Positions 3,001-52,969 of a stretch of DNA of 52,969 nucleotides are shown piece by piece (position 1 is the first letter of the stretch; every line of letters begins with the position of its first letter). The notes beneath the pieces were generated by a model. It saw only the letters and a list, made by a program, of their open reading frames with translations, was not told the DNA's origin and did not search any database. Made by a program: the position numbers and the translations under genes. Origin of the DNA: Candidatus Omnitrophota bacterium (GTDB lineage: Bacteria; Omnitrophota; Gorgyraeia; Gorgyraeales; Gorgyraeaceae); assembly GCA_026387235.1 (NCBI GenBank), contig JAPLMD010000044.1, positions 1 through 52,969 of the forward strand, read 5' to 3'.

Positions 3001-6000
3001 AGATCTCGCATGTCAGTTATATACAGAAGGCCTGGATATGTTAGATAAAGTTTCTAGCGCGCAAAACAAATTATGGTTCGGTATTTTAGGTGAACTTGAT
3101 TCATATTATCAATATAGATTTACAGCTTATGTACGGCTTGGACAGCTCAACGAAGCAATGATAGAATTACCAGCACTATTAAATACCTGCCAAAATATTG
3201 ATGATTTAGCCAAATTTTTAACAGGCACACTGGTTTCTTGGGCTGAATACGAGGCTCTGGTTAAAGCGCTAACTGGAATAAAGAATGGGCGCGGCGTAGA
3301 AGAACTTGTAAGCGCATTGGAGAAAAAATTACAGAGCCAGCCTGATAATCCGGCTGCAGTTACAGGATTGTCTACATTATCTGCGTTTGGCCAGGCAAAG
3401 AAATCACATGTGTTTGAAACAAAGAGAAAAGAATGGCAGACAATATTTGGCCCAGGGTCGCTTAAGGCCCAAAATAGGACACCTGTTACTGTAGATACTA
3501 TGCGTCAGTTTCTTAATGCGTTGCGTGCTACATTGACTATTCAGGAACAAGCAGAGTTTTTAGCTGAATGTGTGTCTCCTAAGGAGTTATTAGATAAAAC
3601 TGCTATAACTTCGCGTCAGGGCTCGATAGTCAAGGTAGTTATGGAAGAAATCCAGAGAATAGTAAGTCCGGAACTGTCTGAAAAAGTAATCGAGGATTTG
3701 TATAAGAAAATTGATGACCTGGAAAAAGACCACCGAAAACAGCTCGACCCATTGCTTAAAACAAAAGGCCTTATTGATACTATTTTTGAAGTTCGTAGTA
3801 AATTGAAAAAGGCTTTAGGGTTGCTTCTGGAAAAGCAAAAACAGACACTAGCTGCGCATGAAGAAGAGGTAGAGCCTGTTGTTGAAGTTGTAGAAGCTGA
3901 GCCTGCGCCAGCAGAGGTAGCGAGAGAAGCTGAACCTATAGCAGAAGAAGCACAAGTGCCAATAGTAGAGGACGCAGTACAAACTATATCTACCAGTCGC
4001 TCAGGAGCATTGGACCAGCAGTTGACAGCTGAAGAATTAAGAACACGTAGAGATCAATTAGAAACAGATTTTCTTGGAGCTCTTGATCAGGTCAGCAGAT
4101 TGCGATTGCCTGAAAGCAATCGCGCATTAAAAGATTTAAGAAGGACAGCGCATAAATTACGTAAGAGAGCAGAAAGGTTTAATACAGAGTTGCTTCCAGA
4201 AGTAGAAAAATTAGAAACAAGCATTAGGCAGCTTGAAATGCAGCTTGCTCAAATAGAATCAGATGTTCATGTACAGGCATTGGATCAGCCAGCAATTGAT
4301 GCTATTCGTCAGTTAGGAACAGTAAGAGAATTAGGACAACATCTTTTCGATATGTATGGCATCAGAGGTGTAGCTAAAGCAACATTAGCCAATGCCTGCA
4401 TAAAAGGCGGAGTAGATCCAGTAATTATCTGGCGCATAGCTATTAGCGAAGGATGTAAAACACAAAATGATACTGCGCAGTATAATCAGGTACTTGCTCA
4501 GTTGCAAGAAAATAGAGGATTGCCAGGCAATAGAAAGGCCGGCAATTTACTTCAGGGCTTGACAGTTCCGGTTGTATTGCTAGGCCGCGCATTGCATCTT
4601 CCAGACAGGATAACAGCAGGTTTGGGTGGAATGGAAGAAATATTCTTCAGCTGGTTTTTCTGCACTGTGCTGCCAAATATATTGCATCATTGGGGCATGC
4701 CTCCAGGATTTGGTTTGGCAATAGGCGTTACCTTAAGTATGTTCTTCTGGTCAGCAATGCATTGGAAAACTGCATATAAGTTGGTTCACTATGATTTTTC
4801 TGAAAAAGACAGAGTTCGTTATGGTGTTTTGAAAGAAAAAATACCTACGCCTCTTAGCCGCATGTTACTTTTTGGCATAGGGGCTGGTTTAAGAATAGTT
4901 TATATTTTAGCTCAGATCGTAGCGCCTTGGTTAGCTTTACCCTTAGTTATGGCGCTTCATAGCTATTACAATGTTAAATTTGCCTTTGATAGAGGCCTGC
5001 CGCAGGCAATAGCAAATTATATAAAGATAGGCCGTGGTATTTTAACGCTGTTTGTTATAGCAATGGTTAATGGTGCGGTTGGCCAGGCTGCGACAACGGT
5101 AAGAGAGCGAACTGAGTCAGCACTCAAAACACCGCAGACTAACATTACACTAGTTGCTCAGAATAAAGAAACAATAGAAGTGAAGAAATGGGTGAAGAAG
5201 TTTGGCAAAGAAATAAAAAGAATTTTTATTGAAGCAGGAGATAAGGATGAACAGGCAATTGTTTTCGAGATGAAAAAAGGCAAAGGAGATGGGTATAGGC
5301 TATCAATATCAAGCAGGGATTCTAAATTAGAAATTAGCGATGCCGCAGGCCGCAATAAAAAGGCATTGGCTCCTGAAGAAAAGCTTGGACTATTAGGCGT
5401 GTTGAAAGAAATGAAACAGGGCATGGAAGCATATGGTGAAAAAATGCAGCCTATGAACAAGCTCTTAAATAGGATTATTGAGTTGTTTGAAGAGCATACC
5501 GAAACTACTCCATTAAAGCAGGGGCCATCCGTAATTCCAGAAGCAGGTTATAGAGATCATATGCCAATTCTTGGGAAAGCAATATTATTGATGCTTGGAA
5601 TACCTGCGCTTGCTTCTGCAGGCCAGGATATTGCTCAGGTTATTAACTTGTTGCCTTTATCTTCACTACTTATAACAGTTAGTCTTGCATACTTGGTTTA
5701 TCGTTATTTAATCAAAACAGGTTATGCCAATAGAATATTATCTTTGTTACACGATCGGTCAACGCAGATACTGGCAGTGTCACTGACAGGGGCAGCTCTG
5801 GCCACAGCTGCAGGTTTTTGGTTTGGATTATGGACGTGGCAATTAGGGGCTGCTGTTACTATTGGTTTTGCAGCACGTTATATCGGACTACAAACTTCTA
5901 AGGCAGAGTATTCTGCTTCTGGTTATATAATGCTGGCTATGCTTAGCACCTCGCTGACGTTTACAGCCTTTTTTGGATTATGGAACGATTCGCTTTATCA

Positions 6001-6634
6001 TTGGATCCATGCCTATCCGCCTCTTATTAAAAGCTCGATTGCTTTTATAAGCGGGGTAGGCTTCAGCGCAATATATGATGGTATAGAGAGGTTATTATTT
6101 GGGTCTATTGTTCGTTCAGCGCAAATTACGCCTCAAGATGCATTCAAACGAAGCGGCATACTTGTTATGGCCAGGCTTGGAGTAGCATGGGCGCTGCATG
6201 TATTGGTTCAGGCTATACCTAGAGAGTATTTATCATATAAAATATTAGCTGGTTCCATTGGAGGATTTGCCCTTAACTGGTTTAGAAGCAGCGGCATGAA
6301 TAGGGAAAAAGAAGGGGTATCTTTTCTGTGGATGATAGGGAGTGGTTTATTAGGCACAGCAGCGTGTTTCGTATTTGTAAATTGGTCTACGGGCTTGGCA
6401 GGATTATTTCTTACCGCAGCCTCATTGCTATATTTTAGACGGGGACATATTTCAAATTGGTTTAAGAAACTCGAGTTAACTAAGGCGCGCTATTATAAAT
6501 GGAAGGAATATTACCGAGGTATAAAATATCTTATGTTTACTATACTGAGTACGCATAAATCAGTTGAGTTGAAAAAGACTTATATTAAGCCATCTCTGCA
6601 GAAGCCAACAAAGGCAGCGGTAACGAGCATTTGA
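2..6634 (+). CDS. giant multidomain membrane protein, 5'-partial (>=2210 aa): tandem excisionase/MerR-like HTH repeats, Tudor-like beta domain, TPR-like helical region, coiled coil plus acidic linker, two polytopic membrane blocks
   Basis: The frame is open from nt 2, with no stop before the ATG at 56. Residues upstream of that ATG (..NSGISYELLNKL) continue the ~95-aa repeat seen again at KKLGIDYFSFRRMV and KKLGITSRATLRKF, so the start lies outside the window. GSLVVHEEFGPGIIEE...ICVRF..RSVTF resembles the UvrD/PcrA C-terminal Tudor-like fold. There is a long helical/TPR-like stretch, an EP/EA-rich acidic linker (nt ~3860-3990) and many hydrophobic helices after nt ~4600. Confidence 0.8.
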   Translation: MTALSENSGISYELLNKLMEKRKIRCLRFNIPGFTKESILISEKDIKNLQEREMSKLNEFRKRYLPSEKQAVRSADDIQRLKDTYGVDAVRKKLGIDYFSFRRMVIERRIRCRTFEIPGIAQAFTLIREEDMDFSKLYKRELASLNKFCKEHLPSESQPVADLKDIRLLIQKYGSNATCKKLGITSRATLRKFLIRKNIYYKVFRIKNLIDEFILISEADLNGVMQKSESDRALKQQQASERLKSIRAFLTSLDIRTDINGIENRLNKLLGKRSEYHLRRLERVWKPYSKMGLRLGSASFIGILEKSRGPNDFIIRFDKRLQIMHPGVRELGMVVDWGIAQVPETRREVFKNKVIPAMIAVSGEQRRVSGVGILGFFQMLVEASGVIGTKENPLPPGSLVVHEEFGPGIIEEPAHDSQKPGNNGHICVRFINRSVTFVPNSVLSPFSNQSNSGTHLGTKHTYDPDFRPFAAYDTKTGAAQHMNFDEAHQDLVRTLINMPGTAIFKAETNDILTQINPNAPPETVQVIETKLRNILPRIIPVIEKPVYFYFFKGAEKPAYLGNNPYTLLDAKGEDNKRGIVYLEAGSGGIDPETGEWRNNPSVYLTQELFTKLSSEILIGVLPEELEHAAVKTSGDHAAEKWEAQSDRLDKLISLRIGLLNHDIQENDIWRSVERASVLIDVEEYDAAERILYGLLDTNRVKLPGQLLSITNVLDRLLKEQGRHEDRIRAADKAIAIAGNVFKPGSTRYRNPSNLAIAVSNAIYYKARALEALGEHDKAVKIAISALEDLKQKNHLVELASVEFKNIWFELSASLSGFIGDKLSQSWEKDLKKDALYQAEDYLAAAIDNFARCTDTNIQSVSVYQARLAWTCFYKSRYEALNPAGKEKASMFLARARSAATEALKAYRTPEALTINGVLTEAEGAPEGRGQAIKYLEESYKLSQVPRTAIMRAKVALRAHDIEGAEYWLNELEKDTMSQTYIKGAWLCQKAAALWGNESQRDLACQLYTEGLDMLDKVSSAQNKLWFGILGELDSYYQYRFTAYVRLGQLNEAMIELPALLNTCQNIDDLAKFLTGTLVSWAEYEALVKALTGIKNGRGVEELVSALEKKLQSQPDNPAAVTGLSTLSAFGQAKKSHVFETKRKEWQTIFGPGSLKAQNRTPVTVDTMRQFLNALRATLTIQEQAEFLAECVSPKELLDKTAITSRQGSIVKVVMEEIQRIVSPELSEKVIEDLYKKIDDLEKDHRKQLDPLLKTKGLIDTIFEVRSKLKKALGLLLEKQKQTLAAHEEEVEPVVEVVEAEPAPAEVAREAEPIAEEAQVPIVEDAVQTISTSRSGALDQQLTAEELRTRRDQLETDFLGALDQVSRLRLPESNRALKDLRRTAHKLRKRAERFNTELLPEVEKLETSIRQLEMQLAQIESDVHVQALDQPAIDAIRQLGTVRELGQHLFDMYGIRGVAKATLANACIKGGVDPVIIWRIAISEGCKTQNDTAQYNQVLAQLQENRGLPGNRKAGNLLQGLTVPVVLLGRALHLPDRITAGLGGMEEIFFSWFFCTVLPNILHHWGMPPGFGLAIGVTLSMFFWSAMHWKTAYKLVHYDFSEKDRVRYGVLKEKIPTPLSRMLLFGIGAGLRIVYILAQIVAPWLALPLVMALHSYYNVKFAFDRGLPQAIANYIKIGRGILTLFVIAMVNGAVGQAATTVRERTESALKTPQTNITLVAQNKETIEVKKWVKKFGKEIKRIFIEAGDKDEQAIVFEMKKGKGDGYRLSISSRDSKLEISDAAGRNKKALAPEEKLGLLGVLKEMKQGMEAYGEKMQPMNKLLNRIIELFEEHTETTPLKQGPSVIPEAGYRDHMPILGKAILLMLGIPALASAGQDIAQVINLLPLSSLLITVSLAYLVYRYLIKTGYANRILSLLHDRSTQILAVSLTGAALATAAGFWFGLWTWQLGAAVTIGFAARYIGLQTSKAEYSASGYIMLAMLSTSLTFTAFFGLWNDSLYHWIHAYPPLIKSSIAFISGVGFSAIYDGIERLLFGSIVRSAQITPQDAFKRSGILVMARLGVAWALHVLVQAIPREYLSYKILAGSIGGFALNWFRSSGMNREKEGVSFLWMIGSGLLGTAACFVFVNWSTGLAGLFLTAASLLYFRRGHISNWFKKLELTKARYYKWKEYYRGIKYLMFTILSTHKSVELKKTYIKPSLQKPTKAAVTSI

Positions 6635-6670
6635 GTTTTTTGAAAAAAGTTTAAAAAAAGCTTTTATAAA

Positions 6671-6699
6671 TTGACAAGTTATGGTATAATCTGTGTAAT
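6671..6699 (+). promoter_or_regulatory. sigma70-like promoter upstream of the PilZ gene
   Basis: TTGACA (6671-6676), 17-nt spacer, TGTAAT (6694-6699). An overlapping alternative is an extended -10, TGGTATAAT (6682-6690). It lies in the 154-nt gap after the giant ORF and about 15 nt upstream of leader element copy 1. Confidence 0.55.
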
Positions 6700-6713
6700 A
6701 TATTTCGGATAAA

Positions 6714-6783
6714 GGTCCCTCGCGACTAGAAGCAAAAATAAGGGTCGCTCGGGATCAAATTTTGCTGCGCAAAATTTGGGAGG
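6714..6783 (+). promoter_or_regulatory. two-hairpin SD-proximal leader element, copy 1
   Basis: GGTCCC-TCG-CGAC...GTCG-CTC-GGGATC, then CAAATTTTG-ctgcg-CAAAATTTG, followed directly by GGGAGG and the ATG at 6789. Confidence 0.7.
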
Positions 6784-6788
6784 TATAA

Positions 6789-7124
6789 ATGAGAGGAAGT
6801 GATTTTGTAGAGAAGAGAAGAACCAAAAGATTGGCGATGTCTCTTCCTATGAAGCTCAGGCGGGTTACCGGCGAAGGTAAATGGGAAGCCGTAGAAGCAG
6901 TTACTTCTAATGTAAGTTATAATGGGGCATATGTAACAGATATAGATTTAAAAAATATAAAGCCCAACGATAACTTACACATAACCTTTTCAGTGCCGCG
7001 GGATGAGGCAAGGGATTTTCCGTTTTCCCGCATTATCGGCAAGGCAAGGGTTGTGAGAGCGGAGGATGAAACTTGCGCGCTTGAATTCAACGAGGATATA
7101 TCCCGGCTTTTTGTTGCTAATTAA
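6789..7124 (+). CDS. PilZ domain protein (putative c-di-GMP receptor)
   Basis: 111-aa ORF with a GGGAGG SD 5 nt upstream of the ATG. It carries the PilZ signature pair: RRTKR (RxxxR) at the N terminus and NVSYNG ((D/N)xSxxG) about 30 residues later. Confidence 0.75.
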   Translation: MRGSDFVEKRRTKRLAMSLPMKLRRVTGEGKWEAVEAVTSNVSYNGAYVTDIDLKNIKPNDNLHITFSVPRDEARDFPFSRIIGKARVVRAEDETCALEFNEDISRLFVAN

Positions 7125-7129
7125 AAAAT

Positions 7130-7198
7130 GTCCCTCGCCGCATATATGCAGGTACTATGGCGGCTCGGGATCAAATTTTGTTTCACAAAATTTGGAGG
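7130..7198 (+). promoter_or_regulatory. two-hairpin SD-proximal leader element, copy 2
   Basis: It starts 6 nt after the PilZ stop. Sequence: GTCCC-TCG-CCGC...GCGG-CTC-GGGATC, then CAAATTTTG-tttca-CAAAATTTG-GAGG, then the ATG at 7203. Confidence 0.7.
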
Positions 7199-7202
7199 AA
7201 GG

Positions 7203-8528
7203 ATGAAAGGTCTGTATAAGAAGTTTTGTCTTTTTTTTATGCTTTCTTTGTTCACCGTTTTTTTAAGTGTTTTTTTAGTGAGCTGCGGGCCGAATGCGCA
7301 AAATAAAAAGCAGGTTAAATCAATAAAAGTATGGCACTGGATGAGCGACAGGGAAAATGCGTTCCTAGAGCTCGCCAAAAGATATGAAATCGAAACAGGC
7401 GTAAGGGTTAATTTCGAGCTTTACGCTCCTTCAGACGCATATACCCAGAAAGTACGAGCAGCTGCCCAGACAAACACCCTTCCTGATATATTCGGAATCC
7501 TGGGAGAAAAAAGAGATTTTGCCAGTTTTGTGAAGTCTGACTATGTATACGACTTGACAGAAGACATGGATGGAGAGAATGGCGCCTGGAAGAATAAGTT
7601 ATTTGCCAAAGCGCTTGCCGTAAATGAATTTGAACAGGCAAACAGCTTCGGAGTCAAACCCGGCATATATGGCGTGCCCATAGATGTTACTAATATCCAG
7701 ATGCTTTACAATAAAGATTTATTGCAGGCAGTAGGATCTGATTCGTCAAATCCGCCAAAGACGTGGAAAGATTTAATAGAGATAAACAGAAAACTCAAGG
7801 CAAAAGGCGTTCAGGGATTGGTGAGCGGATGGGGAGAGATCTGGATGATAGACTGCTTCGCTTCCAATTATGCCTTTAATATCATGGGCAAGGACAAGGT
7901 CCTGGATACTATACGCGGCGAAGTTTCTTATAATGATCCTGACTGGATAAAGGTTTTTGACCTGTTCCGCGAGATGAGGGATGAAGGACTTCTTGCCTCC
8001 GGTATAGTGACAATGGTCAATAAAACAGCGGAGCAGCTTTTCGCGAATAATAGGGCAGCTTTCGCGTTCAATGGTTCGTGGTGCGTGAATGTTTATAAAG
8101 GCATGAACCCTGATTTAAATTACGGGGTAATGCTTCCCCCTCAGGCTTCAGATAGATATCCTATGACAATATGGGGAGGCGCGGGTTCCAGTTTCATGGT
8201 AAATAAACAGTCCAAGAATATCCAGGAAGCCGTTAAATTTTTGAAATGGATCACTGAAACCGATCAGCAGGTTTATCTTTCAAAAGAGACGCAGGATTTA
8301 CCTTCTAATAAATACAGTTTAAAGGATATACCCATGGTGCTTTCCCAGTTTGCGAGCGCCATGGATAACACCACTCATCCGAACGTTTGGGGAGCTTCAG
8401 AGTTTCCTACGGTAATAGAGACGTTCGATAAAGGCATACAGTCCATAATTATAGGCGAGAAAACCCCGGAGCAACTTGCAAGAGAAGTGCAGCAGGTTAA
8501 AGAACGCGAAATGGCTAAGAAGCAATGA
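7203..8528 (+). CDS. ABC transporter extracellular sugar-binding lipoprotein (CUT1 / family 1 solute-binding protein)
   Basis: I chose the in-frame ATG at 7203 (GGAGG SD 5 nt upstream) over the track start at 7128, which lies inside the leader element. It has a signal peptide with lipobox LVSC. Its length and sequence style (WHWMSD..., NGSWC...) are typical of sugar binding proteins, and two permease genes follow. Confidence 0.85.
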   Translation: MKGLYKKFCLFFMLSLFTVFLSVFLVSCGPNAQNKKQVKSIKVWHWMSDRENAFLELAKRYEIETGVRVNFELYAPSDAYTQKVRAAAQTNTLPDIFGILGEKRDFASFVKSDYVYDLTEDMDGENGAWKNKLFAKALAVNEFEQANSFGVKPGIYGVPIDVTNIQMLYNKDLLQAVGSDSSNPPKTWKDLIEINRKLKAKGVQGLVSGWGEIWMIDCFASNYAFNIMGKDKVLDTIRGEVSYNDPDWIKVFDLFREMRDEGLLASGIVTMVNKTAEQLFANNRAAFAFNGSWCVNVYKGMNPDLNYGVMLPPQASDRYPMTIWGGAGSSFMVNKQSKNIQEAVKFLKWITETDQQVYLSKETQDLPSNKYSLKDIPMVLSQFASAMDNTTHPNVWGASEFPTVIETFDKGIQSIIIGEKTPEQLAREVQQVKEREMAKKQ

Positions 8529-9418
8529 ATAATATGCGCACCAAGGCAGTTCTTCAAAATTATCTATTTGTATTACCCGCGGTTCTGATATTTTCAATAT
8601 TCTACATCTATCCCTTCTACAAAGTGTTTACCCTGTCTTTATGCCAGTGGGACGGGATTGCCCGGTTTGATTTCGCTAAAAATTTTATAGGTTTAAGGAA
8701 TTTCATAGAATTATTCCAGGATAAAATCTGGTGGGGCGCGATGCTTCAGGCAGGCTACATAACCCTGATGGCTCTCACGTTCCAGAATGTGCTGGCATTG
8801 ATGCTGGCTCTCGCGTGCGACAGGGATATAAAAGGAGGCAATATATACAGAGTGATATTTTACCTGCCGCTTGTTCTTTCAGAGGTGGTGGTGGGGCTTG
8901 TGTGGAAATGGATATATGACGGCAATTACGGACTTTTGAATTACTGGCTCCAGAATGTAGGCTTATCAAACCTGGTCACAGACTGGCTTTCAAACCCGAA
9001 GACCGCGCTTACATGCGTGGCAGTGATTCATTGTTGGAAAGGCTTTGGGTGGGGATTCATAATGCTTTTAGCAGGACTGCAGACCATACCGAGGCAGTTA
9101 TACGAAGCAGCGAAAGTGGACGGGGCATCCAGCTGGCAGATGTTTAAGAGTGTCACGTTGCCACTCATGGTGCCTGTTTTTATACTAGTTTCCATACTTA
9201 CAGTGCTTGGCACAATGCAGGTATTTGTCCTGATACTTTCAATGACAAACGGCGGGCCTGGATATCACACAGAGGTGCCTGTCACAAGGATCCTTGCGTC
9301 AATGGTGGATTCTTCAAGATTCGGGTACGCGTGCAGTCAGGGCGTGATGTTCGGCGCGGTTCTTCTGGCTGTTTCGTTTGTGCAGATTAAATTGTCGAAA
9401 TACATGAAACAGGCATGA
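8525..9418 (+). CDS. ABC sugar transporter permease (MalF/UgpA-like)
   Basis: ATGA overlap with the binding-protein gene. Six hydrophobic segments and an EAA-type loop (YEAAKVDGASSWQMFKSVTLPL). Confidence 0.9.
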   Translation: MNNMRTKAVLQNYLFVLPAVLIFSIFYIYPFYKVFTLSLCQWDGIARFDFAKNFIGLRNFIELFQDKIWWGAMLQAGYITLMALTFQNVLALMLALACDRDIKGGNIYRVIFYLPLVLSEVVVGLVWKWIYDGNYGLLNYWLQNVGLSNLVTDWLSNPKTALTCVAVIHCWKGFGWGFIMLLAGLQTIPRQLYEAAKVDGASSWQMFKSVTLPLMVPVFILVSILTVLGTMQVFVLILSMTNGGPGYHTEVPVTRILASMVDSSRFGYACSQGVMFGAVLLAVSFVQIKLSKYMKQA

Positions 9419-9420
9419 AA

Positions 9421-9472
9421 CCTGGTCCACCTGCCAGGTGAGCCAATTGGCTCACCTGGCAGGTGGACCAGG
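9421..9472. repeat. 52-nt perfect GC-rich palindrome between the two permease genes
   Basis: cctggtccacctgccaggtgagccaa|ttggctcacctggcaggtggaccagg. The two 26-nt halves are exact reverse complements, and no T-tract follows. Confidence 0.9.
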
Positions 9473-9490
9473 TAGGGATAGGGGTAGAAT

Positions 9491-10339
9491 ATGAAAGAAG
9501 GAACAAAGTATAAAATTGAAAGATTTTTTAAGGATTTTATGATACATATTTTCCTTATTATTATATCCATTACATGCCTATTTCCTCTTCTCTGGATGGC
9601 AGGATCCAGCTTGAAAACTCAGAAGACCATATTTTCAGATATGAGTATTTTCCCAAAGAATCCGATGTGGGGAAATTTTTATCTTGCCTGGACCAAGGGC
9701 GGATTCGGGATGTATTTTTTGAACAGCTTATTTTATACTGTTACGGTTGTGTCCGGGATAGTGATTATTTCGTCCCTGGCAGCCTTTGCGTTTTCCAGAC
9801 TGAAATTTCCCGGCAAGAACGTGATTTTTTATATGTTTCTCGGGGCTATGATGATACCTCTTCCGGGAAGCTTCGTGCCCCTTTATGTCCTGATGACAAG
9901 GCTTCACATGATAAATACGAGGATAGGCTATATACTCTGCATGATAAATGTAGGGCTTTCTTTCAGCATATATTTATTGAAGACATTTTTTGACAAGATG
10001 CCTGTGGAACTGGAGGATGCGGCCCGCATAGACGGATGCTCGAGATTAGGGATATGGTGGAACATGGCTCTTCCGCTTGCAAGACCTGCAATAGCTGTTA
10101 TAGTGATATTTAATTCCCTTAACGTATGGAACGAGTATATACTCGCTACGCTGATATTTTCAAGTAAAAATCTAATGCCTTTACAAAGAGGCCTTATGAT
10201 ATTCCAGGGGATCCACATTACCGAGTACTCGCTTTTAATGGCAGGCATGACAATTACCACTTTGCCGATAATCTTAGTGTACCTGATAATGCAGAGGCAT
10301 ATCATTAAAGGGATAACAGCGGGAGTGATAGTAGGATGA
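9491..10339 (+). CDS. ABC sugar transporter permease (MalG/UgpE-like)
   Basis: Six hydrophobic segments and an EAA loop (LEDAARIDGCSRLGIWWNMALPLARPA). Confidence 0.9.
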   Translation: MKEGTKYKIERFFKDFMIHIFLIIISITCLFPLLWMAGSSLKTQKTIFSDMSIFPKNPMWGNFYLAWTKGGFGMYFLNSLFYTVTVVSGIVIISSLAAFAFSRLKFPGKNVIFYMFLGAMMIPLPGSFVPLYVLMTRLHMINTRIGYILCMINVGLSFSIYLLKTFFDKMPVELEDAARIDGCSRLGIWWNMALPLARPAIAVIVIFNSLNVWNEYILATLIFSSKNLMPLQRGLMIFQGIHITEYSLLMAGMTITTLPIILVYLIMQRHIIKGITAGVIVG

Positions 10340-29900: not shown

Positions 29901-30174
29901 CGAAGATAGATTCAGGCCTATTTTTATGACAACATCCACTACGATACTCGGACTGGTCCCAATGGCTTTTGACAGGAGCGAATCTGCAAATCTATGGTCT
30001 CCTCTCGCTATAACTGTTATAGGAGGACTGACGTCTTCTGCGATATTGACGCTTTTCCTGGTGCCGAGCGTTTATATGATCTTTGAAGATTTGAACAGCA
30101 TGATTTTTACGCCAAAACAATTATTAGTATTTATTCAAAAAAGAATTTGTGGTATAATAAATAGAAAAGTATGA
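26995..30174 (+). CDS. second RND (AcrB/HAE1-like) efflux permease
   Basis: ATGA overlap with the first RND gene. It is a 1059-aa paralog with the same TM/periplasmic-loop layout. Confidence 0.9.
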   Translation: MSLSSYSVNKPVSITMLFIGVVIVGVVSLIRLPVELKPNISYGDISIIVEVRGGMPPQEVESMVTKPIEEAVSTVTHLENIYSTSKAGESRIWLEFEPGINMDFAALETREKFSKIKDKLPKEIEKPILAQYKESDTPVMILAITSKAHTVETLRRVVDEQIKERILRVEGVANVDVYGGRERKILVEIDQARLQAHHVPIDYVVSSLGSNNFSLLLGDLPRGKNKYLIRALGTFESVKDIENIGVSVTPQGSVIKLKDVATVKDSFMEPSSYARTDIEPVVSIYIQKESTANTIKVVGGIKKELNQIKNIIDRNIYIKTTLNQADVINDAIDAVKSSLISGAFLSILILLITLRDLRPTFIISITIPISVMFTFILMYFQRLSLNVMTLSGLALGIGMLVDNSIVVLDNVDKKRSGLLPLPGWKEKDKNAVIEGASEMGLAIIASTITTVIVFLPFVFVNKETRMLWSGLAFTVTYSLLTSLFVAMTLVPTLLSQMARKPIEKKEQKVSNKSAALKIKGLYRKGLVMAIRFRYLLIAVAFLALSVAVFFGIKIDKEFMVEAEEGRFTIFVELEPGAKLDVTDKMVKELEERLSKIKEIKTFTSRVEPWSSKIYVKLVPVRNRASSTKEVMDAIRLEGDAVARRYKGGFIYFSELEESGLKELTLDLYGYDYKILKETAISIATRFGSIDGLQDIRMSRISGRPEWLIKIDKQQAGSFGFTTQEAAETLHGEIRGLRATLFHTEAREIETVTRLQKKYREKLDDVRRLTIYTSEGEPILLEQIADFVPDIGMSEIIRKNKTRVVHITAMVSKGSLQKAVEKVKASLADMEFPKDYYWRVGGDYERNIKSEKELSAFPFLLKSPYVQMPGVLWITLLLVFMVLAALFESFTQPFVILFSVPLAIVGVVSALYISHKPISRGVIIGAIMLAGIVVNNAIILVDRINFLRTKKDGARTDKYQEILRSAIIAGEDRFRPIFMTTSTTILGLVPMAFDRSESANLWSPLAITVIGGLTSSAILTLFLVPSVYMIFEDLNSMIFTPKQLLVFIQKRICGIINRKV
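30130..30158 (+). promoter_or_regulatory. possible internal promoter (extended -10) inside the 3' end of the RND gene
   Basis: TGGTATAAT (30150-30158) is the same extended -10 string as at 6682-6690. The -35 is weak (TTTATT, 17-nt spacer). It lies 16 nt upstream of leader element copy 3. Confidence 0.35.
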
Positions 30175-30242
30175 GGTCCCTCGCCGCGTATTTGCGGGCG
30201 CAATAGCGGCTCGGGATCAAATTTGCTTCGCAAATTTGGAGA
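30175..30242 (+). promoter_or_regulatory. two-hairpin SD-proximal leader element, copy 3
   Basis: It starts 1 nt after the RND stop. Sequence: GGTCCC-TCG-CCGC...GCGG-CTC-GGGATC, then CAAATTTG-cttcg-CAAATTTG-GAGA, then the ATG at 30250. Confidence 0.7.
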
Positions 30243-34585: not shown

Positions 34586-34615
34586 ATCAAATTTTGTTTC
34601 ACAAAATTTTGGAGG
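34586..34615 (+). promoter_or_regulatory. SD-proximal leader element, copy 4 (hairpin 2 only)
   Basis: ATCAAATTTTG-tttca-CAAAATTTTGGAGG starts 2 nt after the YchF-like stop. The ATG is at 34620. Confidence 0.6.
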
Positions 34616-34619
34616 AAGA

Positions 34620-36191
34620 ATGCGGAAGATTAGAAGGGCGCTTATAAGCGTTTCAGACAAGGCAGGATTAGAAGAACTGGTAAAGGTGTTGAATGAATTT
34701 AAAGTAGAGATATTATCGACAGGCGGTACAGCCAAACTTATAGCGGGCTTGGGCGTACCTGTTAAATCCGTGTCAGACCACACTGGATTTCCGGAGATGT
34801 TAGACGGCAGAGTAAAGACATTGCATCCGAAGATTCACGGCGGGCTGCTGGCTATCCGGGATAAAAAAGAACATATGGAGCAGATTAAAAAACATGATAT
34901 AAGCCTGATAGATATGGTTGTAGTGAATCTTTATCCTTTTGAAAAAACAGTCGCCAAGTCCGATGTGAAATTAGAAGAGGCGATCGAGAATATAGATATA
35001 GGCGGGCCAAGCATGCTGCGCTCAGCAGCAAAAAATTCTAAAGATGTTGTGGTGGTGTGCAATCCTGATAGGTATAGAGATGTGATAGAAGAATTAAAGA
35101 AAAATGACGGAGCGATCTCCGATGAATTGCATTTCAGGCTAGGGGTGGAGGTGTTTGAAAAGACGTCAAAGTATGATGCGGCAATTTATAACTATTTGAA
35201 AAAACAGGTTGGCGGCGAAGAGTCAAAGGTGGAGGGTGAAGATTTTCCTGAAACATTGGAATTAAAATTTTACAAGGTGCAGGGGTTGAGATATGGAGAA
35301 AATCCTCATCAGAAGGCGGGTTTCTATAAAGATAAAAATGTGAATGCGGCAGGTATTTCCAATGCCAGGCAGCTTCACGGTAAAGAGCTGTCATTTAATA
35401 ATATAATAGACCTGGACGCAGCGATTGAAATAGTAAAAGAATTCGAAGAACCTGCGGCGAGCGTTATAAAACATACGAATCCCTGTGGTGCGGCAAGTAA
35501 TAAGACATTGGCGGACGCATATAATGATGCTTTGGATTGCGATAAGGTTTCCGCTTTTGGAAGCATAGTAGGCCTTAATAGAGAGGTGGATTTTAAAACA
35601 GCCGAGGCAATAATCAATGCCGGTTTTACAGAGTGCATTATTGCGCCTTCGTATGAAAAAAAGGCCCTGGATATTTTAATGGCAAAGAAGAATTTGAGAT
35701 TAATAGAAACGGGAGAATTGAAAGGAATAGAAAAAGATTATGATCTTAAAAAGGTTGTAGGCGGGCTTTTGATACAGGATAGAGATGTTTTTCATATAGA
35801 AGAAAAAGATTTAAGGGTGGTTACGAAGAAGAAACCTACAAAGGAAGAGACAGCGTCTTTGCTTTTCGGTTGGAAAATAGTGAAACATGTAAGGTCAAAT
35901 GCAATAGTCCTGTCACAGGGCACTAAGACCGTAGGGATAGGAGCGGGCCAGATGTCCAGGGTTGATTCAATGGTTATCGCCATAATGAAATCCAAAGGAC
36001 TTTCTAAAGGCGCTACATGCGCGAGTGACGCGTTCTTTCCTAAAGAAGACGCTATAGAAGAAGCCAAGAAAGCAGGCATAACGAGTATAATCCAGCCAGG
36101 CGGTTCTATCCGCGATGAGTATGTAATAAAAGCATGCGATGACGCAGGTATAAGCATGGTTCTTACAGGCGTCAGGCATTTTAAGCATTGA
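34620..36191 (+). CDS. purH: bifunctional AICAR transformylase / IMP cyclohydrolase
   Basis: 523 aa with the MGS-like N terminus RALISVSDKAGLEELV...STGGTAKL and VKTLHPKIHGGLL. It is PurH-like over its full length. Confidence 0.95.
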   Translation: MRKIRRALISVSDKAGLEELVKVLNEFKVEILSTGGTAKLIAGLGVPVKSVSDHTGFPEMLDGRVKTLHPKIHGGLLAIRDKKEHMEQIKKHDISLIDMVVVNLYPFEKTVAKSDVKLEEAIENIDIGGPSMLRSAAKNSKDVVVVCNPDRYRDVIEELKKNDGAISDELHFRLGVEVFEKTSKYDAAIYNYLKKQVGGEESKVEGEDFPETLELKFYKVQGLRYGENPHQKAGFYKDKNVNAAGISNARQLHGKELSFNNIIDLDAAIEIVKEFEEPAASVIKHTNPCGAASNKTLADAYNDALDCDKVSAFGSIVGLNREVDFKTAEAIINAGFTECIIAPSYEKKALDILMAKKNLRLIETGELKGIEKDYDLKKVVGGLLIQDRDVFHIEEKDLRVVTKKKPTKEETASLLFGWKIVKHVRSNAIVLSQGTKTVGIGAGQMSRVDSMVIAIMKSKGLSKGATCASDAFFPKEDAIEEAKKAGITSIIQPGGSIRDEYVIKACDDAGISMVLTGVRHFKH

Positions 36192-36196
36192 TAAAA

Positions 36197-36384
36197 ATGA
36201 AGCAGGCTGGGGCCATTCGGCACTGAAAGAGTTTCGCCGTGCGCTACGGTTTACGGCTCATTTTTATACCGAAGGTAGTCTTGACGGTATAAAAACTTCG
36301 CCGTAATTCCTTGCGCACTTAGTATTAAGAATGCTATTAATGCCGAAACTTTTCTGAGGTGCCTCAGGTCCCATCCTGCTTCAT
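36197..36384 (+). repeat. rod-like structured intergenic repeat, long form, copy A
   Basis: Termini ATGAAGCAGGCTGGGGCC / GGTCCCATCCTGCTTCAT are inverted. Internal nested stems are TTTTTATACCG/CGGTATAAAAA, TTACGGC/GCCGTAA and GTGCGC/GCGCAC. It is homologous to 49332..49429 and, inverted, to 52776..52952. Confidence 0.85.
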
Positions 36385-36395
36385 TAAAGTTTATT

Positions 36396-37745
36396 ATGGA
36401 TTACAGAGATACTATAGACTATATTAACTCCTTCATAAATTTCGAAAAGATACCCAAATACCAATATGCTTCTGCATTTAAACTGGAGCGGATGAACGCT
36501 ATTTTAGAGGAATTAGGCAACCCTCATAAAGATTTGAATATTATTCATGTCGCAGGCTCTAAGGGCAAAGGGTCTACGTGCGCTATTGCAGCTTATATCT
36601 TAAAAGAAGCCGGGTATAAGGTTGGGCTGTATACTTCTCCGCACCTTGTTGATTTCAAGGAGAGAATAAGAATACTTAATGACGGGCCGGATGGTCCGAG
36701 AGAATTTGAAGGCATGATAGGCGAAGAAGAAGTTAATGAGATCTTAAAAGAAATAAAACCTGTTGCGGAAAATTTCAGAGAACATAGGACTCTGGGCAAG
36801 GCGTCTTTTTTTGAGATCTTGACAGCGTGCGCTTTTTTATATTTTAAAAAAAGACAAGTTGATATAGCGGTTTTGGAGGTAGGCCTTGGAGGAAGGCTTG
36901 ACGCGACGAATGTCGCAATGCCTTTAGTATCCGGAATAACAAATATCAGCTTGGAACATACTGATAAACTAGGCAATACTCTGGCCAAGATTGCGTATGA
37001 AAAGGCAGGAATTATAAAAGAGCATAGTTTAGTTGTTAGCGCTTCTCAGGAAACAGAAGCAATGGATGTCATAAGAAAAGTTTGCATTAAAAGAGATGCT
37101 GAATTATACGAGATTGGAAAAGATATTAAATATTCTATTTTAAATTCAGGTGAAAAAGGCCAGGTTTTTGATTTGAAAGGGCCCGAGTATTCTTATAAAA
37201 ATCTGGAAGTGAGTTTAATAGGTGTCCACCAGATTGAAAATGCTTCTATCGGCATAGGCATGCTTAAGCTTATGGATCCGGATAGGTTTAATATAAGAGA
37301 AAACGATATAAGAGAAGGGTTAAAGAAGGTATCTTGGTCCGGGAGATTGCAGGTAATCCAGAGAAGTCCATACATAGTTTTAGACGGAGCTCATAATTTA
37401 GTCAGCGCGACTGCATTGGCAGATTCCATAAAGAAACTATTCAGTTACAGGAAGTTGATATGCGTATTTGGGATATCAAGCGACAAGGATATAAAAGGCG
37501 TGAGTAGCGTTTTAGATATAATCAGTGATATAATAATTCTGACTCAAGCAAAGAACAATCCAAGGGCAGAAGATGTATCAAGGTTAAAACAAAATTTTAG
37601 AAATTCAAGGCCAGGCCTTGAAGAAAGCAGCAATATAGAAGAAGCTATGCAGAAGGCATTGAGGCTTGCGGATAAAGATGATTTAATATTAGTTACCGGT
37701 TCATTGTTTATTGTCGGCGAGGCAATGGCGCGGTTAAAAATGTAA
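36396..37745 (+). CDS. folC: bifunctional folylpolyglutamate synthase / dihydrofolate synthase
   Basis: Mur-ligase P-loop HVAGSKGKGST, YTSPHL, and the LEVGLGGRLDATN motif typical of FolC. Confidence 0.9.
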   Translation: MDYRDTIDYINSFINFEKIPKYQYASAFKLERMNAILEELGNPHKDLNIIHVAGSKGKGSTCAIAAYILKEAGYKVGLYTSPHLVDFKERIRILNDGPDGPREFEGMIGEEEVNEILKEIKPVAENFREHRTLGKASFFEILTACAFLYFKKRQVDIAVLEVGLGGRLDATNVAMPLVSGITNISLEHTDKLGNTLAKIAYEKAGIIKEHSLVVSASQETEAMDVIRKVCIKRDAELYEIGKDIKYSILNSGEKGQVFDLKGPEYSYKNLEVSLIGVHQIENASIGIGMLKLMDPDRFNIRENDIREGLKKVSWSGRLQVIQRSPYIVLDGAHNLVSATALADSIKKLFSYRKLICVFGISSDKDIKGVSSVLDIISDIIILTQAKNNPRAEDVSRLKQNFRNSRPGLEESSNIEEAMQKALRLADKDDLILVTGSLFIVGEAMARLKM

Positions 37746-41110: not shown

Positions 41111-41213
41111 GGGTCCCTTTCGCAAAATAGGCCCTTCGGCAGCTAAAATGCTCGCTTTGCTCGCATTTCTTTACGCTGCCTCAGGATCAAATTTGTTTCA
41201 CAAATTTGGGAGG
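41111..41213 (+). promoter_or_regulatory. two-hairpin SD-proximal leader element, copy 5 (expanded variant)
   Basis: GGGTCCCTTTCGC..., then GGCCC-TTC-GGCAGC...GCTGCC-TCA-GGATC, then CAAATTTG-tttca-CAAATTTG-GGAGG, then the ATG at 41219. It starts 2 nt after the preceding stop. Confidence 0.65.
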
Positions 41214-48980: not shown

Positions 48981-49331
48981 ATGAACAAAAAACTATACGG
49001 CGGAATATTAGGCACAATAGGATTCTTATTATCTCCTCTTTCCTGGTGGAATGACCTGTTTATAAATTTCCCTATAGCCTATGCTTTTGCCTGCGCGGCA
49101 AATTTTATTTACAAAGGGTCATTTTTAAACGCGCTTATTATTTTCTACTGGCTGACAAATATCCTGGGATTTGTGTTATTGCAAAAAGGCCTGGAAAAGA
49201 TGGAGAAGGATACTGAAGAAAAAAAGAAGTATTCCGGAAAAGATTTTTTGAGAGATATATTATTTTCCGTTGCTTATACTTTATTAATAGTAATATTGGT
49301 AAAGTTAGGTATAATCAAACCTATAATATAA
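48981..49331 (+). CDS. small polytopic membrane protein of unknown function (alternative leaderless start at 48879)
   Basis: MNKKLYGGILGTIGFLLSPLSWWNDLFINFPIAYAFACAANF... has 3-4 hydrophobic helices. The 34 codons upstream (MATESSGLSAARLPCRRGCC...) are GC-richer, structured and repeat-like. Confidence 0.6.
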   Translation: MNKKLYGGILGTIGFLLSPLSWWNDLFINFPIAYAFACAANFIYKGSFLNALIIFYWLTNILGFVLLQKGLEKMEKDTEEKKKYSGKDFLRDILFSVAYTLLIVILVKLGIIKPII

Positions 49332-49429
49332 TTGTCAACCCCCAGGCTGGGGCCGTTCGGCGCAGAGAAAGAACCGGTTATGCCGAAACCTCTCAAATGC
49401 GCCTCAGGCCTCAGCCTGGGGGTTGACAA
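49332..49429 (+). repeat. rod-like structured intergenic repeat, short form, copy B
   Basis: TTGTCAACCCCCAGGCTGGGGCC...GGCCTCAGCCTGGGGGTTGACAA is a 23-nt inverted terminus with one mismatch. It matches both ends of copies A and C but lacks their ~85-90-nt central module. Confidence 0.85.
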
Positions 49430-49454
49430 ACATAATTAGAAAATTAAACCAAAT

Positions 49455-51353
49455 ATGATTGATCTAAAAAAGCATCTTAACGCATCTCAATTTTTAGCTG
49501 CTACGACAATAGACGGGCCTGTGCTTGTTATTGCCGGCGCAGGTTCAGGCAAGACAAGGGTTATAGAATACAGGGTATTAAATCTCGTTCAAAACGGGGC
49601 GGAACCAGCTTCCATATTACTGCTGACTTTTACCCGAAATGCCTCCAGGGTCATGCTTTCCAGGGCCAGCGCTCATGATCCCAGATGCGCGATGGTGGAA
49701 GGCGGCACGTTTCATTCATTTGCGTATAAGGTATTGAAACATTACGGAAAGGCCCTGGGTTTTGACAGCGCGTTTTCCATTCTAGACGAATCCGACGCCG
49801 TAGACGCGGTGGGCAAGTGTTCAAGCGATATCAATATTTCTGAGCGGGCCAGGAAATTTCTTAAAAAAGGCACTATAAGAAACATAATAAGCATATCTAT
49901 AAACAAACACGGTTCCATAGAGGAAATTATTGAAAAAGAATATCCGCATCTGGCAGAATACAGCGAGTATATAAAAAATGTAAAATTAAAATATGTTAAA
50001 TATAAGATGGAAAAAAATTATATGGATTACGATGACATGCTGGTTTATCTTAAGAAACTGCTTGAGGATGAAGGCATCAGGAAGCAGGTCGCGTCAAAAT
50101 ATAAATATATAATGGTGGATGAGTATCAAGATACTAACAAGCTTCAAGGAGATATCAGCTATTTATTGGCCAAGGACCATAAAAATATCATGATTGTCGG
50201 AGACGATGCCCAGAGCATATACGGTTTCAGGGGGGCGACTCATAAAAATATAATGGATTTTCCTGTAATGTTTCCAGGATGCTCGGTAATCAAACTGGAA
50301 GAGAATTACAGAAGCACTCAGCCTATTCTGGACGCGGCAAATTCCGTGCTTTCCGAAATGAGCAGCAAGTATGCCAAGCAGCTTATATCCAACCTGAAAC
50401 ATAAAGGCGCCAGGCCTCAGATGTGGTTTTTTAATGATGCCTACGAAGAGGCCGCGTGGATTGTAAAAAAGATGGACGAATTAAAGGATGGAGGCATTCC
50501 TTTTGAGAAGCAATGCGTGTTATTCCGCTCAAGTTATATATCAATAGCGCTGCAGGCGGAATTAAACAAGAGAGGGATATCTTATCATCTGATGGGCGGA
50601 ATGAAATTTTACGAAAGCGCTCACGTGAAAGATGTCGTGGCGCATTTGAAAATAATAGTGAATCCTAAAGATGAGCTGTCCTGGCACAGGGCATTGGAGC
50701 TGATAGAAAGCATAGGGCCTAAAACAAGCGGGAAGATTTTAAAAGATATCAACACCGGGTCTATCGCGAAACATGAAAAGGGGTTTAAATATTCTAACGG
50801 CATCCAGAGGTTTAAATTATTGATAGAAAGCCTTTCAGATAAAAAGGCAGGGGTGGGAGATAAATTTGAGGCAGCTTTTGATTATTATAGCCCGATCCTG
50901 AAATCTAAATTTGACGATTGGAATGCGAGGGTAAACGACCTAGAGACATTAAAAAAGATTTCATACCGGTATGATTCTCTTGAAGACCTATTGAGCGATT
51001 TTGCGATAGAGCTTCCTGATTCTCATGGGAAGCAGTATCAACCGGAACATAAAAAACAGCCGACGCTTTCTACCATTCATTCCGCAAAGGGCATGGAGTG
51101 GGATGCGGTTTTCCTGATAGGGCTTATCGACGGCGTTTTCCCGGTGAGTTTTTCTTTGAGCGACGAAGACGGGATAGAGGAGGAGCGCAGGTTGTTTTAC
51201 GTAGGGCTCACAAGGGCAAAAGATCATTTATTTATTACGTTTCATCATGAGAATAATCGCGGCTCTATGAACCGGTTTAATAAGATCTCAAGATTTATTG
51301 ATAATTCTAGTATTATGTCGAGGTTGGAACAGAAGTTATTGATGGATATATAA
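49455..51353 (+). CDS. UvrD/PcrA/Rep-family superfamily 1 DNA helicase
   Basis: Motifs: VIAGAGSGKTRVI (Walker A), MVDEYQDTN, GDDAQSIYGFRGA, EENYRST, TIHSAKGMEWDAVFL and LFYVGLTRAKDHL. Confidence 0.9.
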   Translation: MIDLKKHLNASQFLAATTIDGPVLVIAGAGSGKTRVIEYRVLNLVQNGAEPASILLLTFTRNASRVMLSRASAHDPRCAMVEGGTFHSFAYKVLKHYGKALGFDSAFSILDESDAVDAVGKCSSDINISERARKFLKKGTIRNIISISINKHGSIEEIIEKEYPHLAEYSEYIKNVKLKYVKYKMEKNYMDYDDMLVYLKKLLEDEGIRKQVASKYKYIMVDEYQDTNKLQGDISYLLAKDHKNIMIVGDDAQSIYGFRGATHKNIMDFPVMFPGCSVIKLEENYRSTQPILDAANSVLSEMSSKYAKQLISNLKHKGARPQMWFFNDAYEEAAWIVKKMDELKDGGIPFEKQCVLFRSSYISIALQAELNKRGISYHLMGGMKFYESAHVKDVVAHLKIIVNPKDELSWHRALELIESIGPKTSGKILKDINTGSIAKHEKGFKYSNGIQRFKLLIESLSDKKAGVGDKFEAAFDYYSPILKSKFDDWNARVNDLETLKKISYRYDSLEDLLSDFAIELPDSHGKQYQPEHKKQPTLSTIHSAKGMEWDAVFLIGLIDGVFPVSFSLSDEDGIEEERRLFYVGLTRAKDHLFITFHHENNRGSMNRFNKISRFIDNSSIMSRLEQKLLMDI

Positions 51354-52624: not shown

Positions 52625-52775
52625 TATGAAACGCATACACTGGAAGATATTATTTACATGCGTCACCTGCATAACAATTACCCGTATCTTTTCTCCCTTG
52701 CCGTTAGGACCAATCCGTTTGATATAAAAGCTTCAGCTATAATAAAAGAATAAATAAACCTTTCTTGTTCTGCCT

Positions 52776-52952: not shown

Positions 52953-52969
52953 GCTTAGCGGACACCGTG

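Follow-up and report, generated by a model that had tools for sequence, protein, structure and literature searches.

The window analysed here is the whole of a 52,969-nt contig (JAPLMD010000044.1, positions 1 to 52,969 of the forward strand; assembly GCA_026387235.1) from a Candidatus Omnitrophota bacterium. The Omnitrophota are uncultured, mostly ultra-small bacteria, and to our knowledge almost nothing is known of their gene expression. All 36 genes called in the window lie on the plus strand, co-directional in long arrays, and five of them are immediately preceded by a copy of an element made of two adjacent hairpins. An earlier note, made from the sequence alone, had drawn attention to five such copies; a reading of the sequence together with a shuffle control bears them out, all on the plus strand, four being complete and one comprising hairpin 2 only.

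The first copy precedes a PilZ gene. Its hairpin 1 (6714-6756) combines an outer stem GGUCCC/GGGAUC with one G.U pair, a UC/UC internal loop, an inner stem GCGAC/GUCGC and a 17-nt A-rich loop, in agreement with the minimum free energy (MFE) fold. Hairpin 2 with its terminal G occupies 6756-6779 (the hairpin itself 6756-6778) and reads CAAAUUUUGC-UGC-GCAAAAUUUG; the Shine-Dalgarno (SD) sequence GGGAGG at 6778-6783 is fused to it, and the ATG lies at 6789. A sigma-70-like promoter (TTTATA, 16 nt, TG-n-TATAAT; 6663-6690), a match to the consensus only, is situated 23 nt upstream of this copy. Copy 2 (7129-7195) is complete, begins 4 nt past the stop codon of the PilZ gene and leads into the SD GGAGG at 7194-7198 and the ATG at 7203 of a gene for a solute-binding protein. 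Copy 3 (30175-30239), likewise complete but with short hairpin-2 arms, begins right after the stop codon at 30172-30174 and is followed by the SD GGAG (30238-30241) and the ATG (30250) of a gene for a coiled-coil protein. The extended -10 string TGGTATAAT at 30150-30158, within the 3' end of the upstream gene, lies 16 nt before it; the same string had been noticed before copies 1 and 3, and it indeed has just two occurrences in the window, at 6682 and 30150, which is 23 and 16 nt before the respective copies. Copy 4 (41130-41209), in front of the gene for a SurA-like lipoprotein, is complete, with the base GGCCCU-UC-GGCAGC...GCUGCC-UC-AGGAUC, a long apical arm and a short hairpin 2, and runs into the SD GGGAGG at 41208-41213, with the ATG at 41219. 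It belongs to class B of the two classes distinguished below. The segment on account of which it had been called expanded (41112-41129, GGTCCCTTTCGCAAAATA) is actually what remains of the 5' part of a class-A copy, older than copy 4 and displaced by it. Copy 5 (34586-34612; 29.7 bits) consists of hairpin 2 only (ATC-AAATTTTG-TTTCA-CAAAATTTT-GG), starts 1 nt past a stop codon and is joined to the SD GGAGG at 34611-34615, with the ATG of purH at 34620.

The 3' end of every window copy has the form ...AAATTT(T)GG, running into GGAGG, GGGAGG or GGAG, with the ATG a further 4-8 nt on (not 5-9 nt, as first given). The hairpin-2 pattern has four matches in the window against 0.26 expected, none of 100 shuffles reaching four, and the four full copies score 47-80 bits with the covariance models described below. 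The observation that four copies start just past the preceding stop codon holds for copies 2-5, at distances of 0-5 nt rather than 1-6 nt; copy 1 lies 79 nt from its preceding stop. The compensatory change in the inner stem, CGAC/GTCG in copy 1 versus CCGC/GCGG in copies 2 and 3, was confirmed, and the annotations of the downstream genes (PilZ, solute-binding protein, coiled-coil protein, PurH and SurA-like) proved correct. Other details had to be amended: the first G of the supposed GGTCCC start varies (G, T or A), and the hairpin-2 arms are long in copies 1, 2 and 5 and short in copies 3 and 4, so that the lengths had been rightly assigned for copies 1-3 and swapped for copies 4 and 5.

Structure and distribution of the family

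Species-representative genomes were scanned with the exact pattern GGATCAAATTT-n6-10-AAATTTGG, which gave at least 106 loci. These loci, given here as L followed by a number, are 8-kb stretches around the scan matches, and the family counts rest on the matches listed together with the window. About three quarters of the matches listed lie in metagenome-assembled genomes (MAGs) of Candidatus Omnitrophota or in MAGs labelled Planctomycetia; the MoxR protein of one Planctomycetia-labelled MAG (CAZPYQ01, L053) is about 70% identical to its Omnitrophota orthologues. Covariance models were built from 25 copies (R1) and from 99 copies (R2), and searches with them found about 100 strong copies, of 35-78 bits, among the matches listed (0.55 Mb of loci). 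The carriers among these matches amount to about 40 species-level MAGs, whose sources are groundwater, lakes, marine biofilm, the Black Sea and digesters. Pattern matches in other phyla and in IMG/VR contigs score at most 31 bits, and a phage origin was rejected, the nine IMG/VR matches being chance occurrences of at most 30 bits.

A search of the whole window against Rfam 15 at gathering thresholds gave no match, which upholds the earlier impression that the element belongs to no named RNA family. With E <= 10, the region 6600-7300 returned noise alone (group-II-D1D4-1 on the minus strand, at 21 bits versus a threshold of 35, a miRNA, PK-BYV and U6). The full-text literature yielded no description of the element, and the only paper that turned up, on Omnitrophota genomics, makes no mention of it. 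The element, 60-80 nt long, composed of two hairpins and present in many copies across the Omnitrophota, is new relative to described RNA families. An explanation by restriction sites was discarded, as GATC and GGWCC show no unusual avoidance elsewhere in the window.

Pairing statistics were derived from the alignment of 99 copies, which is itself fitted to the model, and are to be read with that caveat: standard pairs make up 97.6% of cells, versus 83% in shuffles and 26-53% when the partners are slid, 17 of the 20 pairs show changes on both sides, and the observed covariation was reached by none of 500 shuffles. In a structure-blind MAFFT alignment 35 copies have C-G and 34 have U-A as the sixth outer-stem pair, and swaps of the whole outer stem, such as GACAUC/GAUGU (L040) and GGUGCU/AGCAUC (L025), keep the pairing. 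The claim of a structured element with real covariation is upheld by both the statistics and this alignment.

Hairpin 1 has the base 5'-G.GUCC(C/U)-UC-stem...stem-UC-(G/A)GGAU.C-3'; the second outer-stem pair is G.U in 91 of 97 copies, and in each of the contexts most copies have a 2x2 UC/UC internal loop. The inner stem is GC-rich and 5-6 bp long, the apical part is free and ranges from 4 to more than 100 nt, and the sequence GGAUCA is invariant. Hairpin 2 adjoins it without a linker and follows the consensus C-AAAUUU(U)RY-UUC-RY(A)AAAUUU-G, then G. The base of this AU-rich stem (C-AAAUUU/AAAUUU-G) is constrained in sequence, with A-U in 96-98 of the 99 copies; covariation is seen at its top (G-C, A-U, C-G), and most loops read UUC. 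Two classes can be distinguished: class A, with the base GGUCCC-UC-G...C-UC-GGGAUC and an A-rich loop, lies almost exclusively before mRNAs, and class B, with the base GGUCCU-UC-...-UC-AGGAUC and a loop that is often UCCUAUUCGUC, lies before mRNAs and around tRNAs. MFE folds give both hairpins, the SD being free in copies 1 and 2; the fold of copy 4 contains an alternative pairing of the 5' arm of hairpin 1 (CCUUC or CCCUC) with the SD. The reverse strand folds equally well into two hairpins by the same measure. Apical loops resembling an anti-SD in class B (CUCCUAUUCGUC) and an SD in class A (AAUAAGGG) are too poorly conserved to be of use. Copies with hairpin 1 only (GGGATTAATTCG...) occur at L061 1300-1415 and L002 1790-1837, followed by CACATTGACTTATGTTCAC, a possible -35 box, which suggests a sub-variant placed before promoters.

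The window also holds a second repeat family with long hairpins (36191-36396 and 49331-49455 on the plus strand and about 52775-52955 on the minus strand). Its core, GGGCC-RTTC-GGCRC...GYGCC-TCA-GGYC, has three matches in the window versus 0.05 expected and sits inside a longer outer stem (18 bp at 49332-49349/49411-49428). The base looks like hairpin 1 of class B, with the same UUC/UCA internal loop between GC stems, and there is no hairpin 2; an Rfam scan of one copy (49300-49480) gave miRNA noise only. Separately, a perfect 54-nt palindrome at 9421-9474 (AACCTGGTCCACCTGCCAGGTGAGCCAATTGGCTCACCTGGCAGGTGGACCAGGT) fills most of the gap between the genes at 8525-9418 and 9491-10339.

Position at the edges of functional RNAs

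The genomic context was tabulated for 120 non-overlapping hits. An SD and start codon come next in 54 of them. Ten adjoin the 5' end of a tRNA or transfer-messenger RNA (tmRNA) in the same sense, the last G's of the element being G1 or G1G2 of that RNA, and 21 point at an antisense tRNA or tmRNA from its 3' side, overlapping it by 3 nt in every case, with TGG as the complement of CCA. The remaining 35 are made up of tRNAs missed by ARAGORN, tandem or partial copies and low-scoring noise. Copies stand on both sides, with hairpin 2 toward the RNA, at the tmRNA of L025 and at tRNAs of L040, L043, L048 and L056, and in spacers of L048 the succession tRNA - inverted copy - 3 nt - forward copy - tRNA (or SD) fills the whole gap. 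One copy is located directly 5' of a thiamine pyrophosphate (TPP) riboswitch, downstream of a sigma-70-like promoter (TTGACA/TATAAT-type). A GG start is shared by all 10 tRNAs that have a 5' copy, versus 12 of the 40 without one (p = 6e-5), and CCA is encoded by all 19 tRNAs with a 3' copy.

Copies at protein genes are always in sense orientation, none of the copies examined lies inside a coding sequence, and inverted copies are confined to the 3' ends of tRNAs and tmRNA, with one unclear exception in L021. It is not the SD that defines the position of the element. The earlier description of copies directly 5' of SD sequences thus holds before protein genes, always in sense, and fails as a definition of position in view of the tRNAs, the tmRNA and the TPP riboswitch. 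Occurrence in both orientations with no preference for an SD and ATG, which that description had set against itself, was not found before protein genes.

Some individual sites deserve mention. The exceptional copy (L021 1149-1210, minus strand) is the sole clear inverted one between two plus-strand protein genes without an annotated tRNA; on the plus strand ...CTCTTAGCGCAG-CCA stands before it, which may be the terminus of a small RNA that lacks annotation. In L068 a group I intron (5605-5839, minus strand; 82 bits) lies within a tRNA gene whose 3' end has an inverted copy. At about 4135-4150 of L047 a duplicated 3'-end fragment of tRNA-Lys (...GCGGGTACCA) adjoins the inverted copy at 4053-4134, about 135 nt downstream of the intact tRNA-Lys, which suggests an insertion or duplication event at the tRNA end. 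A different shared sequence, GGAWTYGAAGCGAGCGARCRCCGAGCRAAGCGAGGAAAAG, is found 3' of tRNAs at L033 2769-2870, L047 4150-4282, L014 5900-5993 and L022 3139-3230.

An SD (GGAG or GAGG within 20 nt of the start) is present in 10 of the 36 window genes, and the element occurs on five of these 10 versus none of the 26 others (hypergeometric p ~7e-4); the genome appears SD-poor and strongly strand-biased. Orthologous sites that lack the element retain the SD, as in the window site TACAC|GGAGGGTATCTAT-ATG compared with ...AAATTTG|GGAGGGTATATAT-ATG in L090, or the empty L105 site AAAAAG|GGGGCAGC-ATG compared with the filled window site ...AAATTTG|GGAGGACAGA-ATG, and this indicates that the SD belongs to the gene and not to the element. 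The genes served, identified in part with Pfam and otherwise recognised from their sequence, encode PilZ, EF-Tu, DnaK, S7, S16, S18, S19, L19, SSB, GlnA, GvpA, thioredoxin, PII, NrdR, GreA, PurE, PurM, PurH, DapA, AroC and MoxR. The lack of a common function, first remarked for the window, is therefore borne out across the family and excludes a metabolite riboswitch, a candidate that was rejected also because the element stands before tRNAs and tmRNA and because its stems are conserved and its apical region is free. Orthologous genes bear the element in several species, namely those for MoxR (45-70% identity), GreA, DapA, GlnA and an IMPDH-like protein; there are about 14 orthologous pairs among 54 genes versus roughly one expected by random placement, a rough figure subject to ascertainment.

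These contexts also bear on the possibility that the element is a translational operator, at which an RNA-binding protein, CsrA-like on GGA or Era-like (KH) on GAUCA, controls the adjacent SD. The GGA and GAUCA of the element may resemble CsrA and Era sites, and GGAUCA the 16S 3' tail with its Era site. The invariance of GGAUCA would suit such a protein, as would a second GGA about 27 nt downstream in the SD, the capacity of the 5' arm of hairpin 1 to pair with the SD (the MFE fold in copy 4) and the restriction of the element to SD-led genes in an SD-poor genome. Yet of the two GGA motifs the first (GGAUC) lies in a stem of hairpin 1 and not in a loop, the second is missing from the tRNA-adjacent copies, the genes served are functionally unrelated, and the element also occurs in the absence of an SD, at tRNAs, tmRNA and a riboswitch. 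We regard a translational operator as quite improbable; the copies at tRNA and tmRNA ends and at the TPP riboswitch, with the inverted copies at CCA, weaken it and favour a role in RNA boundaries or processing.

Transcription and strand selection

Around a quarter of the copies lying in sense 5' of an SD or RNA are preceded at 9-23 nt by a good -10 box, in many cases one extended by TG, and the remaining ones are located between co-directional genes. Given these -10 boxes or co-directional neighbours, the element is transcribed. Non-conserved G.U and A.C appositions, read on the forward strand, number 28:11 in SD contexts and 5:9 in copies antisense to tRNAs (Fisher p = 0.025), and these ratios indicate that folding is selected on whichever strand is transcribed. 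Inverted copies retain the identity of the forward strand, so that in the RNA of the tRNA strand the G.U pair becomes A.C and UC/UC becomes GA/GA, the loop remaining mostly UUC.

On a further view the element is a site on double-stranded DNA, be it an operator, a roadblock or the site of a nucleoid protein on CAAATTTG-n5-CAAATTTG, or else an unusual promoter starting at the terminal GG. In its favour, the base of hairpin 2 is constrained in sequence beyond structure, functional RNAs start right at the 3' end of the element, a palindrome functions in either orientation, and GG-n8-TTGC in GGATCAAATTTTGC resembles the -24/-12 of sigma-54. Duplex recognition, however, leaves the compensatory changes in both hairpins and the G.U pairs unexplained, and inverted copies would fire antisense into tRNAs; furthermore, the canonical -10 boxes upstream of many copies place the element inside transcripts. 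The 1-nt variation of the hairpin-2 arms would break the sigma-54 spacing, and a sigma-54-like promoter was rejected for this variable spacing and for the covarying stems. The DNA-site view as a whole appears very improbable to us.

Another function that an element within transcripts might have is attenuation, termination or processive antitermination of transcription. Phage HK022 has a two-hairpin antiterminator, the put RNA, and the element resembles it in having two adjacent hairpins within about 65 nt near promoters; the long co-directional arrays of the 36 window genes would offer scope for such a function. Against this, neither hairpin has a U-tract and no terminator-like site emerged in our scan, canonical terminators are present elsewhere in these genomes, and the exact register with the SD, tRNA G1 and CCA and the inverted copies are unexplained. 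An intrinsic terminator in particular was rejected: AUCAAAUUU comes after hairpin 1 and GG after hairpin 2, and the distal flank of the inverted copies is without a consistent T-run. This group of functions, too, we hold to be very improbable.

Turnover and a possible role at RNA boundaries

Comparison of close relatives reveals that individual copies are replaced. In the species pairs represented by L061/L097, L062/L077, L004/L023 and L002/L026, with proteins 91-95% identical and flanks about 90% identical, the hairpin-1 tops at the identical site are unrelated, and between species with 67-86% protein identity sites are gained or lost. In the window (41112-41129) and in L105, L017, L032, L087 and L063 a decayed old copy lies upstream of a new copy beside the gene; in the window, L105, L017, L032 and L087 the two form a tandem pair in which the gene-proximal copy is intact and the upstream one is without hairpin 2. 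The differing tops at the same site and the empty and filled sites point to a dispersed repeat in turnover. The family turns over by copy-to-copy replacement and new insertions, and is best seen as a domesticated dispersed repeat.

An alternative that we consider possible, if doubtful, takes this turnover as the essence of the element, which would be a selfish DNA repeat resembling repetitive extragenic palindromes (REPs) or miniature inverted-repeat transposable elements (MITEs). The base of the hairpin would then be the site of a DNA enzyme, such as an HUH/Y1 transposase or a structure-specific recombinase of single-stranded DNA, insertion would occur next to G-runs, with strongly preferred sites 5' of GGAGG, at the GG of tRNA starts and at the TGG/CCA of tRNA ends, and any effects on RNA would be by-products. 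This accounts for the unrelated tops at the same site in close relatives, for the empty and filled sites and for the fresh copies beside genes with older upstream copies decaying. It is also in line with the tandem and back-to-back clusters, which resemble BIMEs and REPINs (L048 4705-5095, L056, L025), the retention of the forward-strand G.T pair and TC/TC loop in both orientations, the architecture of conserved base, unpaired spacer and variable top that is typical of single-stranded DNA recombination sites, and the duplicated tRNA-Lys fragment adjoining an inverted copy in L047. On the other hand, one core is shared by about 40 species-level MAGs of the phylum among the matches listed, whereas REP families are usually genus-specific; no copies were found within coding sequences, and at most one clear inverted copy (L021) occupies a neutral position behind a protein gene. 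The orientation before protein genes is always sense, the inverted copies are bound to CCA ends in exact register, and G.U usage tracks the transcribed strand. A CC/GG target-site duplication at tRNA 3' ends was rejected, since the distal junction after inverted copies is GGACC followed by T and not A, and no transposase turned up beside the copies, although no systematic search was made.

Similarities to known systems fall on both sides. The REP/BIME and REPIN sequences of γ-proteobacteria, mobilised by RAYT, are likewise short, abundant, imperfect palindromes in transcribed intergenic DNA, occur singly, in tandem or in inverted pairs, turn over fast and can act on mRNA as hairpins; the element shares this trait with about 100 intergenic copies among the matches listed and back-to-back or tandem clusters in L048, L056, L025 and L017. 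REPs nevertheless lie 3' of genes without a fixed register to SDs or tRNA ends, are genus- or species-specific and carry a 5' GTAG, whereas the element starts with GGUCC, has a second, AU-rich hairpin, is phylum-wide and always stands in sense 5' of protein genes; GTAG is absent from its consensus, which begins (G/T/A)GTCC(C/T)TC. The integron attC site has a comparable conserved paired base, unpaired central spacer and variable terminal structure of very different lengths, starts at or just past the preceding stop codon and shows strand-specific mismatches. In contrast to attC, the element is found at housekeeping genes and tRNAs rather than cassettes and has the extra hairpin 2, and the attC boxes RYYYAAC/GTTRRRY are absent from its base GGTCCY...RGGATC. 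The early-gene RNase III hairpins of phage T7 (R0.3-R1.3) and the Correia elements of Neisseria resemble it as intercistronic hairpins that have a conserved internal loop and lie shortly before the next ribosome-binding site, and processing, predicted here from sequence, would leave protective hairpins on the products. Hairpin 1 of the element is short, though (about 6 + 2 + 5 pairs), and neither of these systems is known to flank tRNAs. Correia elements, moreover, have 26-bp terminal inverted repeats and TA duplications; the ends of the element, GGTCC... and ...AAATTTGG, are not inverted repeats and have only GG in common, and no target-site duplication was seen at the empty and filled sites compared. 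Closer in position are the 5' stabiliser hairpins of the ompA leader and of B. subtilis aprE and SP82, and RiboJ, a synthetic insulator consisting of a processing element and a hairpin adjoining the ribosome-binding site: these too are structured modules at or near the 5' end of a transcript, with a hairpin that stops right at an unpaired SD and independent of gene function. They are single-gene or engineered devices, whereas the present family serves about 14% of the window genes as well as tRNAs and tmRNA and also occurs inverted at 3' ends. In mitochondrial tRNA punctuation, too, functional RNAs within a polycistronic transcript are delimited by a structured RNA unit; there the signals are tRNAs and the enzymes RNases P and Z, while the element is a dedicated, non-tRNA pair of hairpins that borders mRNAs and tRNAs.

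The reading that we tentatively prefer is that of an RNA boundary module, transcribed, acting in cis and confined to the Omnitrophota, which insulates, stabilises or processes functional RNAs. The functional RNA would start inside the last one or two G's of the element, as an SD (GGAGG), as G1G2 of a tRNA or tmRNA, or as a riboswitch aptamer, and in the inverted arrangement the palindromic hairpin 2 would take in C75-A76 of the tRNA or tmRNA 3' end. Folding during transcription might isolate the adjacent functional RNA from its flanks, and beside a promoter the module could provide the transcript with a 5'-terminal structure. The factor that recognises it might be conserved and abundant in the Omnitrophota, with an endoribonuclease as the likeliest candidate; the base of hairpin 1 would be its likely recognition site, and it would separate polycistronic RNA at the junction of hairpin 2 and GG. 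The data show the anatomy, the covariation, the register with the ends of mature RNAs, the sense orientation at protein genes and the dependence of G.U usage on the transcribed strand; cleavage, the identity of the factor and an effect on stability or translation are what we infer here. The generic post-transcriptional module proposed in the earlier note is supported in part: structure, unrelated genes and sense orientation speak for it, the translational-operator option within it is weakened, and the mobile repeat, named in that note only among the possible refutations, is left as an alternative to it. A bolder version, which we hold to be unlikely, is a dedicated RNA punctuation in which a phylum-specific nuclease or RNA-binding protein reads the G.U pair and UC/UC loop and cuts at hairpin 2/GG to make the 5' ends of SD-led mRNAs and both ends of tRNAs and tmRNA, the signal spreading by targeted copy-and-paste to the 5' edges of SDs and to tRNA termini.

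Several observations count against a boundary module. The kept forward-strand identity of inverted copies would be explained no less well by DNA recognition or by recent copying than by RNA recognition. Individual genes can do without the element: an MGY gene has it in L090 and L105 and not in the window, and the SurA-like gene has it in the window (copy 4), the L105 site being empty. Nearly all copies contain AA|AUU in both arms of hairpin 2, within the predicted stem; the core motif of RNase E is RN|WUU (PMC5222698), and the fit speaks for processing as a lead, not a result. The predicted double-stranded state of hairpin 2 would disfavour this enzyme. A leader/trailer stem of the rRNA type, cut by RNase III, around tRNAs is not supported, leader and trailer copies being usually not complementary: those flanking tRNAs of L043, L048 and L056 differ and would not pair along their length. 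At the tmRNA of L025 both flanks have the rare CAAUUUUU variant. No copies flank RNase P RNA or 6S RNA in the examined loci, and none was found within 30 nt of the 5' and 3' ends of 16S rRNA in metagenome contigs, a weak negative given that exact patterns were used and rRNA operons assemble poorly.

The boundary module and the mobile repeat are compatible if the repeat has been domesticated. Whichever applies, a single family borders about one seventh of the window genes, half of the SD-led ones, as well as numerous tRNAs and a tmRNA in the phylum at large, and this breadth points to a conserved, abundant partner, be it an RNase, an RNA chaperone or a DNA enzyme. Either way, the covariance model can be used in annotating Omnitrophota genomes, and the element offers a target for metatranscriptome end-mapping. 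As a mobile repeat it would stand out by the unusual precision with which it chooses the edges of functional RNAs; should its action be on RNA, engineered insulators of the 5' untranslated region would have a counterpart in nature, and bacteria a new way to define the ends of their RNAs.

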